From: a virus
Lineage: Duplodnaviria; Heunggongvirae; Uroviricota; Caudoviricetes
Length of the DNA: 9,824 nt
IMG/VR virus record: IMGVR_UViG_2619619133_000002
Span: 1-9,824 of that record
Strand: one strand, 5' to 3'
Below the pieces are notes generated by a model. It had not been told where the DNA came from, ran no database searches, and was given only the letters and a program-made list of their open reading frames with translations. Position 1 is the stretch's first letter. Each line of letters starts with the position of its first letter. Of the stretch, positions 1 through 9,824 are shown one piece after another. Both the position numbers and the translations under genes were made by a program.

Positions 1-9
1 GGGTGTAAT

Positions 10-447
10 ATGTTTTATAGTCCATCTTTAAACATTTTTGTGAATCCTGCACTTAAGGATGATTACATTAATGCAAATTCATGGCCAGATGATGCTCTGG
101 CTGTCAGTGATGATGTTTATAATGAATTTGCAATCAATACGCCTCCAGATGACAAAATTCGTGTTGCAGGAAAAAATGGATTACCCACATGGGCACTAAT
201 ACCTCCACCATCGCATGAAGAACTTATTCAACAGGCAGAATCAGAAAGGCAATTATTGCTTAATCAGGCCAACGAATACATGAACAGTAAGCAATGGCCC
301 GGTAAAGCCGCTATTGGTCGTCTGAAAGGTGATGAACTGGCGCAATATAATTTGTGGCTGGATTATCTGGACGCACTGGAGCTGATCGATACTTCCGGTG
401 CGCCAGATATTGAATGGCCTACGCCTCCGGCAGTTCAGGCCAGATGA
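10..447 (+). CDS. tfa: tail fibre assembly protein (lambda Tfa / Caudo_TAP-like), alternative copy inside the invertible segment
   Basis: ATG at 10 sits 1 nt after a frame-3 TAA (6-8) that closes an upstream ORF running off the window. The C-terminus ...[26 protein letters not shown] matches the conserved Tfa C-terminal motif (compare lambda Tfa ...VDTSTAPDIEWP, from memory). It converges on and overlaps the minus-strand tfa by 29 nt. Confidence 0.8.
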   Translation: MFYSPSLNIFVNPALKDDYINANSWPDDALAVSDDVYNEFAINTPPDDKIRVAGKNGLPTWALIPPPSHEELIQQAESERQLLLNQANEYMNSKQWPGKAAIGRLKGDELAQYNLWLDYLDALELIDTSGAPDIEWPTPPAVQAR

Positions 448-1024
448 CATCCGGCGCTGTGCTGGTATCTGTTGCCGTCACCGCGTCAATGTAATCCAGC
501 ACAGCGTTAAGGCGGGTTGTTTCTGCCTGCGTCAGCTTCCGTCCGGCCTGTAATTTCAGTTGAATCAGACTGATGGAGGCCATTGCAGTATCAATCAGCG
601 ACTGGCGCTGTGCTTCTGCTGCATCTACTGCTGCGCCGTGCTGTGCCTCGGTATCTGTCACCCATTTCTCACCATTCCATTCATCGTATGGCGTTAACGG
701 GGCGATAGTGGTTGTATTTTCAGGATAATCACCCGGAGCTGTGATTTCTTTCGATTCTCCTGTTTCGGTGCTATAGACGATTTCACCGCGATGATCTGGC
801 ACATATTCCCATGAATTTAAATCTACAGAGCGACAGATTGCATAACCAGCTTTATGTGTACCTGGTGCATCCAAACAAGAACATGCCGGGATACCGACGC
901 CGACAGCGAGATATTCAGTTGATGTAGAAATATATTCACGCGTTTCACCATCATAATTATAAATGATAATGTCTCCCGTTTTTATGGCAATGAGTTCACT
1001 ATTTAATACAGCTTTATTCATCAT
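419..1024 (-). CDS. tfa: tail fibre assembly protein (lambda Tfa / Caudo_TAP-like)
   Basis: 201 aa with Tfa-like blocks ([41 protein letters not shown]). The start codon overlaps the tail-fibre stop in an ATGA arrangement, suggesting translational coupling. Confidence 0.85.
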
Positions 1025-1806
1025 GCGGCCCTCACAATATAATTAAAGGCGATGTTACGTGGACGATTTTCATTTGCTGTTGGAACAACATTTGCCGCCG
1101 AGAAGTGAACATCTTGTCGGATTTTTCGGTCATTAGCGTATGTCATAGATACGTTGATGTTATTCCGGACTGAGGTACCTCCGTAAAAAGCACCACTCAC
1201 ACTTTGAACATCAACAATTGCATTTATTTCGCTGTTTACGCGCAACTGACCAAAACCGCCAGTAATGTTTCGAATAGCATCTCCTTGCGCTGAAAGCAGA
1301 GTTCGCCCACTATCCACACCACGTTCATCATCCCAGCCACGAATAAACTCACCGCGTAAATCTGGCAATTTATTTGTCGGATAAACTTTTGCCAGTTCCG
1401 GATACTCTTCGGCAGAAAAAGGCGCACCATTGCATTTCAGCCAGCCTGTTGGCGGAGTGGCTGAAGGCCACGGAACAGGCACACCAACGGGTAATGCCGA
1501 ACCTTCTCCCAAACCAAGGTTTTCGAGAGCCGTTTTCACGGTGCCATCCGATTTGATATCGCCAAACGGATTCTTGCGGCTTAACAGCAGCGCACGAAGC
1601 GCGGTAAGCAGCTGGTCGTGTTGCGCCTTCTCCAGACTAGCACCGGATGCCTCCACCACGCTGCAAAGCTCCTCCTGCAACATGTCAAAGTAGTCATCAT
1701 CCAGATCGGTAGCAGGCGTGCCAGTCTGGGGGTTACCACGGGTAAAACCGTTTTTACCCGCGCCGAACTTATCCTTCTGCGCGGTTTTCGTGTCTATACG
1801 ATGCAT
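1021..1806 (-). CDS. stf: short side tail fibre protein with a tail-collar-like C-terminal domain; N-terminal constant part joined to the C-terminal variable part at an invertase crossover site
   Basis: ATG at 1806 is preceded by GGAG and an in-frame TAA. The C-terminal region ([23 protein letters not shown]...[22 protein letters not shown]) looks like the phage tail collar / tail fibre tip family. Codons 93-101 (ALENLGLGE) are encoded by the putative crossover site. Confidence 0.75.
1504..1529. other. putative serine-invertase (Pin/Gin/Cin/Hin-type) crossover site embedded in the tail fibre gene
   Basis: 26-bp imperfect palindrome TTCTCCCAAACC-AA-GGTTTTCGAGAG; 9 of 12 half-site positions are symmetric. 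The AAACC-AA-GGTTT core resembles hix/gix/cix sites as recalled (e.g. hixL TTCTTGAAAACCAAGGTTTTTGATAA). Confidence 0.55.
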
Positions 1807-2617
1807 GGATTACTCCGGATACCGAACCGTTGAGCATCTCGATAACTTCCCGCCGCTTGTCGTAGCACGGCCCCTCAATGTTGTACCCGGCGGTGGTGAT
1901 GGCCCACATCAGTGGCTGACGTCGCGCGCCCATCCCGGTAAGCATCGTGGTATAAAGCGCATCGGTGGCGTGCTCGTGATATTCATCCACCACGGCACAG
2001 TGGGGTGATGAACCATCACCGGGGTTACCGATCAGCGGTTCAAACCGCGCGCCATCCTCCGGACGGTTCATGTTTGAGGCGTTAACCTCAATCCCGAACG
2101 CTTCCGTCAGCATGGGTGTGCGTTTACACATCAGTCGCGCCGGGCGAAAGACTTCCCACGCCTGTTTCTCTGTCGTGGCACCGGAATACACTTCCGCGCC
2201 AAACTCGTTATCACAGGCAAAACAATACAGGGCAACACCGGCAGAGATTGCCGATTTGCCGTTCTTACGGGGGATTTCGGTATACCCCTCCCTGAAGCGG
2301 CGCAGCCGGGAGCCTTTATTGACCCAGCCAAACGCACAGCAGATCACAAAGAGCTGCCACGGTTCCAGCGTGATGGGCATCCTCTTGAATGCCCACTCCC
2401 CCTTGGTGTGTGGCAACAGCTGAATAAATTTCGCGGCCCGTTCAGCCAGGTCCTTGTCGAAGCGGTAACGAAACGACTTACTTTTTTCCGCCATCAGGTC
2501 ATCAAGATGGCGCTGGCAGGCCTGAATCACAAACTGGCAGGCCACAATCTTTCCGCGCACGACATCACGGGCATACTGATTGGCAGCATTTACGTTGGGG
2601 TAAGATTTCCGGCTCAT
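1769..2617 (-). pseudogene. terL: terminase large subunit (HK97/Terminase_1-like), truncated: ATPase domain only
   Basis: Walker A-like PRKNGKS and Walker B-like AVVDEYHE are present. Only 282 aa are encoded, against roughly 550 aa or more expected; there is no nuclease domain. The frame ends 37 nt inside the next gene. ATG overlaps the terS stop (ATGA). Confidence 0.75.
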
Positions 2618-3108
2618 GATTCGATGATTTTCAGAAACGGGTTAGTGGCTTTCTTCTGCCCCGCCAGGCCAATCAGACGCTGGCGGCTGCTGGGGTCGAG
2701 TCCGAGCATTGCCCCCGTGCTGCTCATCTCGGACTCCTGTTCTTTCTTGGCGGTCAGCTCCGGATTTTTGACCATGCCACCCATTGCACCGGTGATGGTG
2801 TTGCCCTGTCTGGCAATATTTTTCACGGCACGCCGCCAGAACTCGTAGGCCACGCACCACCGCTCAAGCACCGCGAGGTCAGTCACGCACAGCAGGCCCT
2901 GACCGCAGAGTTCTTTGGTTGTCAGTTGCCACATGATCGTGGCGAGAGGGAGATCTTCTTCAGCGAACCACTCCGGTGGCTCAACACCTTTGATGGGCGT
3001 AAAAACAGGTTCATCTTTATTCAGGGCTCGCTTGCCGGGGTTTCCGGCCAGCGCCTTGCGCGCCGTTGGCTTGGGGCGACGCCCGGACCCCCCCGCCGTT
3101 CCAGCCAT
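2614..3108 (-). CDS. terS: terminase small subunit, P27 family
   Basis: N-terminal [26 protein letters not shown] is typical of P27-family TerS. ATG at 3108 has GGAG about 11 nt upstream; the ORF track starts at an in-frame GTG at 3117. It overlaps the terL start. Confidence 0.8.
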
Positions 3109-3143
3109 ATGCGGCACTCCTGGTTAAATTTCATTTTTCGCGG

Positions 3144-3210
3144 GTATAAAAAAACGAGGGGGCGGGCAGTCCGGAAGACGTCAGGTCACAGGGATGTGCC
3201 CCGCCCCTCC
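3144..3210 (-). terminator. GC-rich imperfect palindrome followed by a T7 run on the minus strand: putative intrinsic terminator and/or cos-region element between HNH and terS
   Basis: Arms CGAGGGGGCGGGCA (3155-3168) and TGCCCCGCCCCTCC (3197-3210) pair with two bulges. The loop contains the GACGTC palindrome. The minus strand reads stem then TTTTTTTA. Confidence 0.45.
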
Positions 3211-3233
3211 CCTCAGACAGTTGAGAGTTATTA

Positions 3234-3584
3234 TCACTTTAACCGTTCACGGACCGTCTTCGCCTTATGACACGGCCAACACAGACTCTGCAGATTACAG
3301 TCGGCATCAGTGCCGCCATGCGCTTTAGGGATGATGTGGTCAACGGTTTTCGCCTCACGCACCACACCGGCACGCAGACATAACTGACATAAACCTTTGT
3401 CACGCTTCAGCACACGCGCGCGGATAGCGTCCCACTTCGAACCATAACCGCGCTGATGACGGGACTGACCTGGCTTGTATTGCTTCCAGCCTTCGCTTTT
3501 GTGGCTTTCGCAGTAGCCTGACGGGTCTGTGGTTGTAGAGCGGCAGCCGCGAACACGGCAGGCTTTTGGGGTTCGTGGTGGCAT
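3234..3584 (-). CDS. phage HNH endonuclease (terminase-associated)
   Basis: 116 aa with CxxC...H...N...H...CxxCH signature (CRVRGC, CESH, DHIIPKAHGG, CWPCH). Position immediately upstream of terS is typical of HK97-like packaging modules. ATG has GGAG upstream. Confidence 0.85.
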   Translation of the reverse strand: MPPRTPKACRVRGCRSTTTDPSGYCESHKSEGWKQYKPGQSRHQRGYGSKWDAIRARVLKRDKGLCQLCLRAGVVREAKTVDHIIPKAHGGTDADCNLQSLCWPCHKAKTVRERLK

Positions 3585-3593
3585 TGGTAAGCT

Positions 3594-3628
3594 CCAATAA
3601 AAAAGCCACCATCGATTGCTAGTGGCTT
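3594..3628 (-). terminator. putative Rho-independent terminator downstream of the moron ORF
   Basis: 7-bp stem AAGCCAC / GTGGCTT (3603-3609 and 3622-3628) with a 12-nt loop, followed on the minus strand by TTTTTTATT. Confidence 0.45.
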
Positions 3629-3654
3629 AGCATCTACTAATGTGAAGAGTAGGT

Positions 3655-4413
3655 TTATTTTTTCTTCTTATTTAACTTATCTAAATTGACGGGATCTTTC
3701 CCTGTGGCAGCTAAACACCAAAAAGAATAACTCTTTTGCATGACATAGGTTCTAATTCTCTCTAATGTTTCATTATATTTTTTCTCAACAACCTGTATCG
3801 CATGTTCAAATAAATTAATCATATCAACATGCTCGTCCTCGACACCAATCATGCTCAGTTGTTTTCTATCTGTCACTGCTTGATAAAATGTTTTCCCATT
3901 TTTCCTTATTAGTAACAATGAAGTTTCTGCTGACTCATAGTCTTGGTTGCCGCTATGTGCTGCAAAATTATGCCTGTAGTTAATAATACAGTCATGCAAC
4001 CCAAAATATTCAGAATCAAGCCAATCACGCTCCATCTTTAACTTTCTCCCTTTAGCTTCAGAGAAAGCTTTACCATAAAACGTTAGGCTTGCCACAAATA
4101 ACGCTCTAATTTCACTTGATAAATCTAGATCAAGTATATTCCCGTATAACTTGCCATCTGTCCTTAATTCGTTTCTCCCTGCCAGTTCATTAGCTATTTG
4201 GTACCACTCTTTAGCACTTTTTAAGTCCCTATGAATTAGTGACAGTGAAGATGCTCTATCGGCAATACGCCCACTCAATTTTATGCGATCTACAATTTCA
4301 TTATTGAATGTATAAACCGCTTTAAATTCCCCCGTTTCGGAATCAATATAATATTCAACATCTAACCCTTCATATGATTCACACCCGGGACCTTCTAATT
4401 TTTTTCTTTTCAT
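3655..4413 (-). CDS. hypothetical protein in an AT-rich moron; contains an Rx5H motif (possible HEPN-like RNase)
   Basis: Long ORF in a sharply AT-rich island between Rz and HNH. ATG at 4413 is used here; the ORF track starts at an in-frame TTG at 4437. Motif NYRHNFAAH lies at 3955-3975. No family recognised by eye. Confidence 0.55.
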   Translation of the reverse strand: MKRKKLEGPGCESYEGLDVEYYIDSETGEFKAVYTFNNEIVDRIKLSGRIADRASSLSLIHRDLKSAKEWYQIANELAGRNELRTDGKLYGNILDLDLSSEIRALFVASLTFYGKAFSEAKGRKLKMERDWLDSEYFGLHDCIINYRHNFAAHSGNQDYESAETSLLLIRKNGKTFYQAVTDRKQLSMIGVEDEHVDMINLFEHAIQVVEKKYNETLERIRTYVMQKSYSFWCLAATGKDPVNLDKLNKKKK

Positions 4414-4494
4414 ATAGAATATCCATATACGTTTCAATTCTCAGTCAGCATAGTAGAAAAAAAAGATGTCCAGATCCATACATCGAAAGCAATT

Positions 4495-4959
4495 TTAGTT
4501 TTCACACTGACTAGAGATATAGTCCTGCAATGCTCTTATCTGTTTATAACTGATTTCAATTCTCTCTCTGAGGGTGAAATAATCCCGTTGAGCGGTGTCA
4601 GTAAGTCGGGGGGCGGTAGCATCATCCAGGCTGGTGGTAATGGTCGTTGATTGCACTCTCGGGCAACTAGCGGCGAGGAACAGCCGCTTAGTGCCAACAG
4701 CAACATCACGCTGAAGCTGTTCAATAGTTGCTTTAGCATTTGCAAGTTCTCCGGTGTATTTCGCATCGAGCGCAGAAACATCACGCTGGCGCTGCTGCAT
4801 CTCAGTAATGGTGGCGTTCGCCTGGCTGAGTTTTTCCTTCGCTTTATCGCGCTGTTCTTTGTAGGCGATGGCGTTATCACGATAATGATTAACAGCCCAT
4901 GATAGGCAGACGATGGTGCAGATAACCAGAGAGGACAGAATCGCAGTTACTCTACTCAT
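4495..4959 (-). CDS. Rz: i-spanin Rz
   Basis: [31 protein letters not shown]... is near-identical in pattern to lambda Rz as recalled. ATG at 4959 overlaps the end of R by 8 nt (ATGAGTAG). The ORF track's longer form begins at a TTG inside R. Confidence 0.85.
4536..4739 (-). CDS. Rz1: o-spanin Rz1 lipoprotein, embedded in the +1 frame of Rz
   Basis: [20 protein letters not shown] has a signal peptide and lipobox (LSGC). The proline-rich mature part [27 protein letters not shown] resembles lambda Rz1. Confidence 0.75.
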
Positions 4960-5434
4960 ATAGCTGAATTTCTCTGACCGTTCCGCCCGATTCTTTGAAT
5001 TTTTCAATCAGGCTGTCAACCTTATGTTCGAACTGACCATAACCAGCGCCCGGCAATGACGCCCAGATATTGCTGCAACGATCAATAGCCTGACGGATAT
5101 CGCCGCGATCAATCATCGGTAAAGCACCACGCTCTTTAATCTGCTGCAATGCCACAGCATCCTGGCTTTTTGGAGAGAAGTCTTTCAGCCCAAGCTGCTT
5201 ACGGTAAGCATCCCACCAGCGTGAAAGAAGCTGATAACGTCCTGCGGCTGTTGATTTAAGTTTCGGGTTTAGCGTGACAAGTTTGCGAGGGTGATCGGAG
5301 TAATCAGTGAACAGTTCACCTCCGACAATAACGTCATAACCGTGGTTACGTGTCGGTTGTCGCCCGTTATCCGTTCCTTCTGACCATGCCACCATATCGA
5401 GGAAAGCTTTACGCTGGGAATTTAGTACCTGCAT
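4952..5434 (-). CDS. R: endolysin, lambda R-type lytic transglycosylase
   Basis: [47 protein letters not shown]... matches lambda R as recalled along its whole length (160 aa). Confidence 0.9.
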
Positions 5435-5437
5435 AAA

Positions 5438-5764
5438 TTACTCCTTAGAGCCACCAAACTTATTACCGATTACTCTCATTGCAGCCCCACGAATAGCATC
5501 GACCCCGATCAGCCCAACGCCGCCACCAATGGCAACAGAAAGAGATTTAGGCCATCCGACATACTCAAGAGCGGATGCAAAAGTCAGCGTCAGAGCACCA
5601 CAGAGCAAAATCTCGAGCGTTTTTCGTTTCCAGCCACCACCACCGCCAAAATAGGCAATGCGCAAGCCAGCCATAACGATCGACATAATCACTGCGCCCA
5701 GCGGTGTGTCTCCACGCCACCAGCTCTGGACCAACTCCAGCCAGGTATTTGGGTTATGAGGCAT
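5438..5764 (-). CDS. S: holin, lambda S-like class I (three predicted TM segments)
   Basis: 108 aa with three hydrophobic segments and a G-rich loop (AYFGGGGGWKRKTL), comparable to the lambda/P22 S holin layout. Stop lies 3 nt from the R start. Confidence 0.8.
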   Translation of the reverse strand: MPHNPNTWLELVQSWWRGDTPLGAVIMSIVMAGLRIAYFGGGGGWKRKTLEILLCGALTLTFASALEYVGWPKSLSVAIGGGVGLIGVDAIRGAAMRVIGNKFGGSKE

Positions 5765-5902
5765 TTGTAGTTATCTCTCACCTCGCTGATACAGCAGGTG
5801 CAAATTGAGGGAACATCATGTACCGCAAATCAGAAGCGGAAACATCAAAGAAGCCGAACCGATGGAGAACTGCGGAATAGGCCAGGACCAACGAATCCCC
5901 AG

Positions 5903-6060: not shown

Positions 6061-7002
6061 ATGAGTACAGAAAATAAGAATAAAACCAGGCGAGTGAGAG
6101 TTGGTTTTTTCACTGGTAATGGAAGCAAAAAAGATGGCACATCTGCTGCAAAACTAGCCTTTGAGCAAATGACCACAGCAGATACTGTAACTTTTCCAAT
6201 AACTTACACAACAGACACCCCAAATCGAGGGTTAAAGTTAGTTATTCTTCAAAAAGATACCACACTGCAATGTTACTTTGGTTACGTATCGTGGAGAAGG
6301 GAATGCCTACTACCGTTCATCGAGGATGCTACAGGTAGTGAGAGAACAATTCCTTTAAATGATAAAGATTCTGTAGTTGAAAGAACATATTTTATCTATT
6401 ACTACGAAACGGACTTATTAGCTATGACCCTCAACCATATAGGGCCCAAAGTAAATGATCTGGCATTCATTTTGTATAACAAAACTGATTTAAAAAGCGT
6501 CACTTTTGAAGCCATTTGGAAACAAGAGAGCATGAAGGAACTGCTTGAGGACGGAAATATCCTACGTAGTTTCGATCTTATAGTTGCTGCTCCAAGAAAC
6601 TTTAACAAAGCTAATTATAAGATTAAAAACCCTTTAGCTAATGAAATTATTGACATGGTTGTTGGTATGGGCGGGTCGCATCTAAGATTAAATATGCGAG
6701 GTCGGATTCGCCCGAAAAAACAAGGGTTTAACTATCTAAAAACTTCTGTCACCGATGCTATTAAGGAACTACTTGAACTTTTTCCAAAAGGTTCTGGAGG
6801 TCTAAAAATTAAAAAAATTGATGTAACAGAGCCATCCAATAGAACGCCCAAAAGTCTACTTGACCAAGTATTGGTCAGTACAAAGACAATCATTGTCAAA
6901 AGCGGTTATCCATCCGATTCTGATATCAGAACGGCGATGATATCTGCTAAAATTGATAACGCGAACTATCTTGCACAGTATGAGCTCGCTAGCAGAGACT
7001 AA
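6061..7002 (+). CDS. hypothetical protein, 313 aa, soluble; first gene of the AT-rich cargo operon
   Basis: Long ORF in an AT-rich island, on the opposite strand to all flanking phage genes. ATG is preceded by an in-frame TAA. No motif or family recognised by eye. Confidence 0.6.
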   Translation: MSTENKNKTRRVRVGFFTGNGSKKDGTSAAKLAFEQMTTADTVTFPITYTTDTPNRGLKLVILQKDTTLQCYFGYVSWRRECLLPFIEDATGSERTIPLNDKDSVVERTYFIYYYETDLLAMTLNHIGPKVNDLAFILYNKTDLKSVTFEAIWKQESMKELLEDGNILRSFDLIVAAPRNFNKANYKIKNPLANEIIDMVVGMGGSHLRLNMRGRIRPKKQGFNYLKTSVTDAIKELLELFPKGSGGLKIKKIDVTEPSNRTPKSLLDQVLVSTKTIIVKSGYPSDSDIRTAMISAKIDNANYLAQYELASRD

Positions 7003-7023
7003 TAACCAAGCATGGAGGACACA

Positions 7024-7473
7024 ATGAGAGAATTAGCCACTTTTCTCTGGAAATGCGTCCTCTGGATTCTGTTGACCTATGCAGCGACAAAACTGTTTAA
7101 ACCGATGAAGCATGCTGACGTACTCACAACAGCGGGGGTGCTCTCGACTATATCAGGCATCCTGTTTGGTTTTGTTCTGGCTGCAATATCTATATTTAGT
7201 AGTGCAAACAGCGATAAGGAAGGAGCAATTAATGCCCTTAAGCAAAACAACGTGTTACCAACTCTGGTAAATAGATTACTTTCAACAGGGTTAACTCTCA
7301 TCGTCGCATGTATATTTCCATTGATAGCGATGTTTCTACCTGATGATGTTATTGTTGCGGGCAAACCTATTGATTTCCTATTCATACTGTTAGGCTTATC
7401 CTCCCTTATAATTTCGCTATATACCTTCGGAAGGTGTTGGTTAGTGTTACGAAAAATCTTCCCCCACTTGTGA
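7024..7473 (+). CDS. small integral membrane protein, 3-4 predicted TM helices; second gene of the cargo operon
   Basis: ATG at 7024 has a perfect GGAGGA 6 nt upstream; the ORF track starts at ATG 7012. Four hydrophobic stretches (FLWKCVLWILLTYAA, GVLSTISGILFGFVLAAISIF, LLSTGLTLIVACIFPLIAMFL, IDFLFILLGLSSLIISLYTF). Starts 21 nt after the upstream gene. Confidence 0.6.
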   Translation: MRELATFLWKCVLWILLTYAATKLFKPMKHADVLTTAGVLSTISGILFGFVLAAISIFSSANSDKEGAINALKQNNVLPTLVNRLLSTGLTLIVACIFPLIAMFLPDDVIVAGKPIDFLFILLGLSSLIISLYTFGRCWLVLRKIFPHL

Positions 7474-7508: not shown

Positions 7509-7874
7509 CTAAGCGTCCATTTCAAGGTTAACATCCAACATTGAAAGGCAACCATCAATAAATCCTTCGGCTAGTTGTATTTCTATGCGTACCAATTTTT
7601 CATCCTTTCCACGCACCTTTGCAATCTTACGCTTGGATATTCTGTATAAATAATGTGCCACAAGCAGCGAGTGCTCATCTGGCTTTTTTTGCTTTAGACG
7701 AGCAAGACAACCTTCAATAATTAATGCATCACTATCTGAACAAGCCTGACGTGTTTTGCTTGTGTAGGGAAGAAGCCCCTTAAACCCAGCAGCTATAGGC
7801 GAATAGTCTACTCCAGAACTATCACTCGCCGCCCATGCTCCCCAACGCTCCAGAACCATCTGAATATCACGCAT
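7509..7874 (-). CDS. Q: late antiterminator Q (phage 82 / QuuD-type)
   Basis: MRDIQMVLERWGAWAA... matches the N-terminus of E. coli prophage QuuD-family Q proteins as recalled. ATG at 7874 has GGAG upstream; the ORF track begins one codon earlier at TTG. Confidence 0.85.
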   Translation of the reverse strand: MRDIQMVLERWGAWAASDSSGVDYSPIAAGFKGLLPYTSKTRQACSDSDALIIEGCLARLKQKKPDEHSLLVAHYLYRISKRKIAKVRGKDEKLVRIEIQLAEGFIDGCLSMLDVNLEMDA

Positions 7875-7891
7875 CAACTTTCTCCACCAAA

Positions 7892-9705: not shown

Positions 9706-9824
9706 TCAGGCGGCTGCCCCCGCCGGTTTCTCGTACTTACTGATAGTGATCTCGACCTTCCCTTCCGGGATAACCGGTCCCCACTCCACCAGCATTCTTT
9801 TCACCTGACTGTCGTCTTCCCACA
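9706..9824 (-). CDS. partial CDS, C-terminal end only; product unknown
   Basis: Open frame from the window edge to TGA at 9706-9708, ending ...WEDDSQVKRMLVEWGPVIPEGKVEITISKYEKPAGAAA. The 5' end is outside the window. Confidence 0.35.
   Translation of the reverse strand, partial: WEDDSQVKRMLVEWGPVIPEGKVEITISKYEKPAGAAA

Follow-up and report, generated by a model that had tools for sequence, protein, structure and literature searches.

We analysed a 9,824-nt stretch of DNA (IMG/VR record IMGVR_UViG_2619619133_000002), called the window below, which appears to carry the late region of a defective, SfV/SfI/e14-type lambdoid prophage. Its centre of interest is the place where the gene for the large terminase subunit (terL) runs into a tail-fibre gene. 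The genes of this junction region, namely terL, a remnant of ymfQ and the tail-fibre gene, are all on the minus strand and are laid out as follows.

2617..1769, minus strand: terL open reading frame (ORF), 282 aa, with its TAA stop at 1771-1769
1820..2617, minus strand: native 5' part of terL, nt 1-798 (codons 1-266), encoding the ATPase domain with Walker A and B motifs
1820..1821, minus strand: deletion junction, a TA common to both parental sequences (terL ...TCGGTA/CCC and ymfQ ...AAATA/TCCGG; here and below a slash marks the join)
1769..1819, minus strand: out-of-frame tail of the terL ORF, 16 foreign codons plus TAA, which read through what is left of ymfQ into the tail-fibre gene
1807..1819, minus strand: remnant of ymfQ (a Mu gp48-like baseplate gene), its last 13 nt, with the TAA stop at 1812-1810 and a GGAG at 1816-1813
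1021..1806, minus strand: complete tail-fibre gene, 261 aa, with a Collar domain (Pfam, PHROG) and the same length as the LR-03 protein

The 282-aa terL product carries a single Pfam domain, TerL_ATPase (residues 86-256), in whose translation Walker A (PRKNGKS, residues 116-122) and Walker B (CAVVDE, residues 207-212) can be read. The TerL of an intact relative is 577 aa long and has TerL_ATPase (86-256) followed by TerL_nuclease (268-558), so that of a functional TerL the window keeps the ATPase domain with both Walker motifs and lacks the C-terminal RNase H-like nuclease domain. Residues 1-266 are those of the 577-aa TerL of the FREC5 prophage except for a V111G substitution, and are followed by the 16 foreign residues; the break is positioned in the linker between the ATPase and nuclease domains. 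An earlier, sequence-only reading of the window had described the frame in this way (a stop at 1769 after 282 aa, Walker A and B, no nuclease domain), and both the frame and Pfam agree with it. That reading had also considered that the missing half of TerL might be encoded in another frame downstream; a split or alternative-frame C-terminus is ruled out by a negative tblastn search of the C-terminal half against the window. The tail-fibre ATG lies at 1806-1804 and the GGAG at 1816-1813 serves as its ribosome-binding site, which the tail-fibre gene had correctly been said to possess. The terL frame does overlap the tail-fibre gene, by 38 nt counting the stop codon and not by the 37 nt first reported. 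Similarly, the two genes abut as proposed, but intact relatives have ymfQ upstream of the tail fibre (always so in 12 complete genomes), and 13 nt of it survive between the two. This remnant was recognized by alignment to the ymfQ-stf junctions of LR-03 and FREC5, the intact gene being assigned through Pfam Phage_Mu_Gp48.

The join was mapped by three-way alignment, direct string comparison and BLAST against L003 (the FREC5 prophage), L001 and L002. In a megablast search of 5,426 complete Escherichia coli genomes, homology to intact terL ends at about window position 1817-1820, and between positions 9824 and 1820 the window matches the FREC5 prophage with 99.3% identity. The parental sequences at the join are terL ...CTCAACGGTTCGGTA/CCCAACG and ymfQ ...TTTTTAAATA/TCCGGAGTAATCC-ATG. 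The deletion junction that the sequence-only reading had placed within 1760-1840 is therefore located precisely, at the TA 1821/1820, by the alignment to intact relatives that it had recommended. Past the break, FREC5 continues with the remainder of its 577-aa TerL, ymfR, portal, HK97-type protease, major capsid and connectors, and then with a tail module in the order Mu-like sheath, tube, tape measure, DNA circularisation protein, baseplate genes, ymfQ and tail fibre; the EC11 prophage has the same layout. The missing DNA corresponds to FREC5 28015..43562, i.e. 15,548 bp with about 20 genes plus TerL beyond residue 266, or to about 16.2 kb when measured against EC11. When the 20 deleted proteins and the C-terminal half of TerL were searched against the window by tblastn, the best E value was 0.15 and no remnant was found, in line with the claim that the portal, protease, capsid and tail genes are gone. 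These comparisons make it very probable that the late region of this defective prophage lost about 15.5 kb in a single illegitimate deletion, which joined terL nt 798 to the last 13 nt of ymfQ. The element would be unable to package DNA on its own, as the sequence-only reading had also deduced, because the nuclease, portal, protease and capsid genes are missing. It is an ordinary case of a well-known kind of cryptic prophage, very close to e14.

None of the 5,426 complete E. coli genomes has the exact junction, and the junction string was not found in GTDB species-representative genomes or JGI metagenomes. There is one other carrier, the IMG/VR contig L015 (UViG_2609459803_000002). Compared with FREC5 over window positions 1820-5786, the two have 24 variants in common; only three positions distinguish them from one another, two in the cos spacer and one being terL V111G, while their right arms (1504-1821) are 100% identical. 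The 24 shared variants, the three private single-nucleotide polymorphisms (SNPs) and the identical right arm show that the window and L015 inherited one deletion event. The V111G change (position 2286; codon 111 = 2285-2287) is private to the window, being found neither in L015 nor in FREC5, and lies five residues upstream of Walker A. After the shared event, L015 acquired different cargo between Q and the holin gene and an early region that is 95% identical to that of the window. Moreover, the invertible segment of L015 is flipped exactly at pix, where the Pin invertase recombines: window 1-132 is found in reverse complement at L015:1-132, and L015 extends about 460 nt past pix into the invertible segment before the contig ends. 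The same deletion accompanied by different cargo and a flipped segment shows that the remnant has persisted for some time and that the tail-fibre switch has operated on it.

The breakpoint is not peculiar to this pair. The base terL nt 798 sits centrally in a GGTACC hexamer (terL nt 795-800; window 1820-1825, kept as GGTA; L003 28011-28016). Three closed genomes break at this same base with right ends that differ from that of the window: LH10-b-1 joins it to ymfQ -84, PCP06173 to gp46 and FT130 to the tape-measure gene, the latter junction creating an in-frame terL::TMP (tape measure protein) ORF (L007 4283-6766) that is annotated as a tape measure. LR-03 differs in its break, terL nt 408 being joined to baseplate J. 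All four keep the lysis-HNH-terS block as the window does. A pattern scan for ...GGTTCGGTA followed by any base but C added further junctions: one in a food-metagenome contig leading to the head-closure region, one contig leading to the protease gene, two to the DNA circularisation gene and one to the inside of stf. At the DNA level there are 11 distinct junctions at terL 798 (window/L015, L005, L006, L007, L012, L013, L014/L017, L016, L127, L128 and L125/L126). In a protein census with the 282-aa fragment as the query, 16-17 distinct terL(1-266)::X fusion ORFs diverge just after ...EMLNGSV (codon 266/267), compared with about 27 distinct fusions at all other terL codons from 160 to 300 combined; for three of these fusion ORFs the DNA was fetched and the break position confirmed. 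With three overlaps counted once, the DNA and protein evidence gives at least 23 distinct partners at terL nt 798. A lesser deletion cluster in terL is found at GTTAAC, codons 178-179.

The left-arm alleles of the terL-798 junctions differ by up to 5%, which argues that they are independent deletion events; a lineage with only 88% identical TerL also breaks at its GGTACC. A single ancestral deletion for all of these junctions can be rejected on the same two grounds. Most right-hand partners have GGTA, GTA or TA in common with the left end, and the joins without microhomology (L127, L012, L143 and L145) put the left end exactly after GGTA, examples of such joins being GGTA/ACCGAA and GGTA/TGCC. 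Besides the FT130 ORF, the junctions have produced other chimeric in-frame ORFs (P0001, P0005, P0043, P0047 and P0049, among others), so that terL::tape measure, terL::GP46, terL::sheath, terL::protease and terL::capsid fusions all occur; public annotation names them after the C-terminal partner.

A second hot GGTACC is located in the portal gene (nt 405-410; L003 29548-29553). In e14 of K-12 the head and tail genes were likewise lost by an illegitimate deletion starting at this hexamer (portal nt 408, GGTA/TATGCGC). In a census with the portal N-terminus as the query, at least 24 distinct fusion tails follow ...DPGCVV(P), compared with 1-3 at any other codon, and DNA-level portal junctions end at GGTA (GGTA/TGGGG and GGTA/ACCGAA); a lesser portal cluster occurs at GATATC, codon 163. 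Each of the two surveyed stretches holds one GGTACC and in both the deletion peak falls on it, a coincidence whose chance we put, by a rough hand estimate from ~6/423 × ~6/306 positions, at ~3 × 10^-4. The terL and portal breaks also have partner sites in common, namely gp46 'RGYIRECLQW', 'LGENILSCDTEK', sheath 'TEMNDTSGRW' and portal 'LHMVQNTDRATF'. Several right ends are used repeatedly: the baseplate J site GGGTA/TATGC (L003 42210-42213) is the right partner in both e14 and LR-03, the ymfQ -84 site (L003 43487-43492) is a partner in L005, P0062 and L143, and the sheath site 'TEMNDTSG' (GGTGACC, L003 35135-35141) is a partner in four different junctions, with others at gp46 L003 41767 and in the capsid gene at L003 31953. 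In a census aimed at a third GGTACC (terL nt 1197), full-length homologues of up to 574 aa filled the list.

We may ask at this stage what makes these hexamers break. The data are compatible with microhomology-mediated joining after a sequence-specific break at GGTA^CC. On balance, we lean towards GGTACC hexamers being sequence-specific fragile sites that leave a GGTA left end, possibly with a 2-nt TA 3' overhang, which is joined through 0-5 nt of microhomology. Such sites would explain about half of the detectable terL and portal truncations, including that of e14, and grounding in this family would then be driven largely by a specific nuclease or DNA-processing activity and not by random decay. 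Applied to the window, a DNA break within the GGTACC at terL nt 795-800 would have kept the left end up to ...GGTA, and the 2-nt TA microhomology would have served to join it to ...AAATA/TCCGGAGTAA, which directly precedes the tail-fibre gene. Gone are the TerL nuclease domain and all genes for the portal, protease, capsid, connectors, sheath, tube, tape measure and baseplate. What remains is a single late transcription unit comprising Q, cargo, holin-lysozyme-Rz, cargo, HNH, cos, terS and the TerL ATPase stub, continuing through the tail fibre, tfa and the Pin-invertible alternative cassette. This remnant would make no particles and would not cut cos alone, although it could in principle still be induced to lyse the cell.

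Candidate causes were considered in turn. A cos or pac site at terL nt 798 is rejected, since the phage records start in the HNH-terS spacer, where the exact SfI cos 10-mer is found. A hairpin or cruciform at the breakpoint is rejected as well (DNA folding z = 0.38; the flanking inverted repeat is just 73% complementary), and Pin acting at quasi-pix sites is unlikely, as pix has an AA centre and a different half-site, several junctions are without TA and the right ends are not at pix. Quinolone-stabilised gyrase cuts precede G with a 4-nt stagger (PMC6379681). The cut G/GTAC/C fits this rule, but the rule is far too unspecific to account for the hot spot, and in the blunt joins the end comes after GGTA. 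Candidate leads are type II topoisomerase cleavage, a restriction-like nuclease, a prophage-borne HNH, RusA and the GIY-YIG protein PD-T4-3; for the PD-T4-3 nuclease, no link to GGTACC is shown. The gene for a GIY-YIG nuclease lies just past pin at the prophage end in FREC5 (L003 46799-47572, minus strand) and in LH10-b-1 (L005 10282-11055, minus strand), and PADLOC identifies it as the single-gene defence system PD-T4-3 (E = 2e-140). Reciprocal junctions (x::terL from nt 797) were not found among viral contigs; proteins starting at TerL residue 268 (P0242) and 263 (P0241) show that reciprocal products, in which the right arm is kept, are rare but exist, and an asymmetry between left and right deletion products is not established.

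Alleles of the hexamer offer a further comparison. The e14 terL allele at nt 798 is GGTGCC and not GGTACC. There are 11 intact copies of the GGTGCC allele, and three apparent junction matches proved to be unrelated sequence, a sample too small for power. At the hot-GGTACC position, e14 terL (L004 ~12184-12230) reads AACGGCTCGGTGCC. It contains an EcoKI recognition sequence, AAC(N6)GTGC, and the hot allele AACGGTTCGGTAC would fit AAC(N6)GTRC.

Several points weigh against our interpretation. Neither a hairpin nor cos nor Pin readily accounts for the breakage of GGTACC. No precedent for a GGTACC hot spot was found in the searchable literature. The surveys covered two GGTACC sites out of the ten in the prophage, and the protein census returned ORFs of at most 1.75 times the query length (491 aa for 282, 346 for 200 and 574 for 328). 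As regards the deletion itself, the right arm (ymfQ remnant and tail-fibre N-terminus) is 95% identical to FREC5 and 95-97.6% identical to the intact relatives found; since no intact relative found comes closer, the exact parent is not among them and was mosaic relative to FREC5. Finally, the window sequence GGTA/TCCGGAG is also what would be produced by a deletion between GGTATCCG (L006) or GGTATCT (L005) and AATATCCGG, a point to which we return below.

The rest of the window carries the following features.

2614..3117, minus strand: small terminase gene (terS), P27 family, intact; Pfam Terminase_4; of FREC5 length
3159..3168, minus strand: cos, the exact SfI 10-nt cohesive end TGCCCGCCCC, in the HNH-terS spacer
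3234..3584, minus strand: HNH endonuclease of the packaging module, intact; Pfam HNH
3655..4437, minus strand: cargo gene between Rz and HNH; PHROG 8440
4495..5764, minus strand: intact lysis cassette with holin (5438..5764), lysozyme (4952..5434) and Rz (4495..5007), all of FREC5 lengths
6061..7473, plus strand: two cargo genes in the Q-holin slot, running antisense to the late operon; PHROG 7651 and 8552
7509..7877, minus strand: late antiterminator Q, intact; Pfam Phage_antitermQ
1504..1529, plus strand: pix crossover site of the Pin invertase, TTCTCCCAAACC AA GGTTTTCGAGAG, the only exact match in the window
419..1024, minus strand: tail-fibre assembly gene (tfa) in the expressed orientation; Pfam Caudo_TAP
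10..447, plus strand: tfa', the alternative, inverted copy; Pfam Caudo_TAP; laid out as in L001 and L002

On this basis the element is assigned to the SfV/SfI/e14 family (P27-type terS, HK97-type head, Mu-like contractile tail), of which it is a defective derivative and not a complete member. Its late gene order (Q, holin, lysozyme, Rz, HNH, cos, P27-type terS, terL) is that of the family and is collinear with FREC5 and EC11. With FREC5 terS-terL as the query, packaging-gene identity to SfV, SfI, SfII and SfIV is 96.8-97.6%, and identity to Salmonella phage ST64B is about 80%. The HK97-type head and Mu-like tail and baseplate genes expected between terL and the tail fibre are not detectable in the window. 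Nor does the element resemble a tailocin that keeps its sheath, tube, tape measure and baseplate without a head, as nothing similar to these proteins is found in the window. FREC5 has the same cargo genes and the same late-region synteny, but it is complete, with a 577-aa TerL, a head and a contractile tail. The same contrast holds for SfV, SfI, SfII, SfIV and EC11, which resemble the window in synteny and, for the phages, in the cos 10-mer, but are complete, whereas the window is without structural genes. The cohesive end of SfI is the 10-nt TGCCCGCCCC (PMC3636060), and the records of SfV, SfI, SfII and SfIV begin within the HNH-terS spacer. Two of the three private SNPs (3158 and 3199) fall in this cos-bearing spacer, and the remnant keeps the packaging signal.

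The cryptic prophage e14 of K-12 belongs to the same phage family. Its terL remnant is 97.2% identical, and it shares stf/tfa, the Pin-invertible segment and pinE with the family of the window; it also has ymfR and ymfQ. It differs in having a portal::baseplate J deletion and, besides this, another in which terS and 597 nt from the 5' end of terL were lost, and it is without Q, lysis genes, HNH and cos. Of the e14-type switch, the window shows the 26-bp pix within stf and the two opposed tfa genes; pin, the second pix and the rest of the invertible segment lie beyond its left edge. The pix site was identified as inverted repeats in L001 and L002, and it is there that homology to L015 breaks and flips. 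The tail-fibre gene has a constant N-terminal part upstream of pix and a variable C-terminal part within the invertible segment.

The lysis cassette was recognized through Pfam Phage_holin_3_1 and Phage_lysis. The retained ORFs (KilA-N, DUF968, Q, the two cargo genes, holin, lysozyme, Rz, the third cargo gene, HNH and terS) all match their FREC5 counterparts in length, and the lysis, Q, tail-fibre and cargo genes are thus intact, as the first reading had it. The cargo genes at 6061-7473 and 3655-4437 have no Pfam or PADLOC match. In relatives, the Q-holin and Rz-HNH slots are occupied by an MBL-fold hydrolase, a cytosine methyltransferase with an ATP-dependent nuclease, a KAP NTPase, DUF6236 or a trypsin-like peptidase; these slots look like exchangeable accessory or defence slots.

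The sequence-only reading had taken the intact genes as a sign of selective retention, which does not follow: the left block from Q to the terL stub is kept by every deletion from this breakpoint, because of the position of the break, and needs no selection. A stronger form of this idea, which we find unlikely, is that the Q-lysis-terS-TerL ATPase stub module and the switchable tail fibres are domesticated, i.e. kept by selection for a function of the host or the element, for instance a nuclease-less TerL and TerS that interfere with the packaging of related phages, or tail-fibre donation. It would fit the intactness of all retained ORFs, a break exactly in the ATPase-nuclease linker, and a deleted lineage that has come through a Pin inversion, an exchange of cargo and three SNPs over about 4 kb. 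Positive hints of maintenance come solely from the window and L015, whose persistence is compatible with neutrality over a short time. The recurrence of the break at base level with microhomology, also at the portal GGTACC where no domain logic applies, points to mutation bias instead. Other deletions from terL nt 798 cut the tail-fibre genes or the invertible segment (L016, P0008 and P0061), and one of the three private SNPs is non-synonymous next to Walker A (V111G). Selective retention remains unproven, these three SNPs being too few for a selection test.

The other alternatives concern how the junction arose and what the remnant can still do. In a two-step origin, terL nt 798 would have been joined to gp46 or ymfQ -84, as in PCP06173 and LH10-b-1, and a second, small deletion between TATC(CG) repeats would then have kept the left end. 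The repeat sequences quoted above would yield exactly the observed join, yet the L005 flanks differ from the window by about 4-5%, including two SNPs within 27 nt of the junction, and while the left arm of L006 is close, no intermediate with the right-arm allele of the window was found. As many different partners are more simply explained by one-step events, we consider a two-step origin improbable. A satellite-like remnant packaged by a co-resident SfV-like helper appears more doubtful again, although it would make sense of the exact cos 10-mer and the intact terS and HNH, and E. coli often carries several related prophages (up to 10-15 matching places per genome). Packaging from cos is subject to a minimum size, as in lambda, and by this analogy a genome about 15.5 kb below its ~35-38-kb relatives may be too small. 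Genes for an integrase, excision and replication are, like the early region as a whole, not part of the window, which of the features of phage satellites shows only cos, HNH and terS. The junction is also rare, L015 being its one other carrier. Least credible of all is a chimeric assembly in which the structural genes are really present. The exact junction is indeed in no complete E. coli genome, but it recurs in L015, an IMG/VR contig that is independent and has differences of its own. The closed genomes LH10-b-1, PCP06173 and FT130 have analogous junctions at this base, the portal GGTACC is broken in K-12 itself, and a 2-nt overlap is too short to mislead an assembler.

Taken alone, this deletion is one more temperate phage turned into a cryptic remnant and changes nothing by itself. 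The junctions do carry a warning for annotation: among their artefacts are ORFs named 'terminase large subunit domain-containing protein' as well as several chimeric ones that are called 'tape measure', 'GP46' or 'portal'. The useful part is that two GGTACC hexamers start dozens of independent deletions across E. coli and its relatives, including that of e14. If the interpretation proposed here is true, inactivation in a very common prophage family would be strongly biased by one sequence-specific breakage process, and how prophages become grounded would be directly testable.

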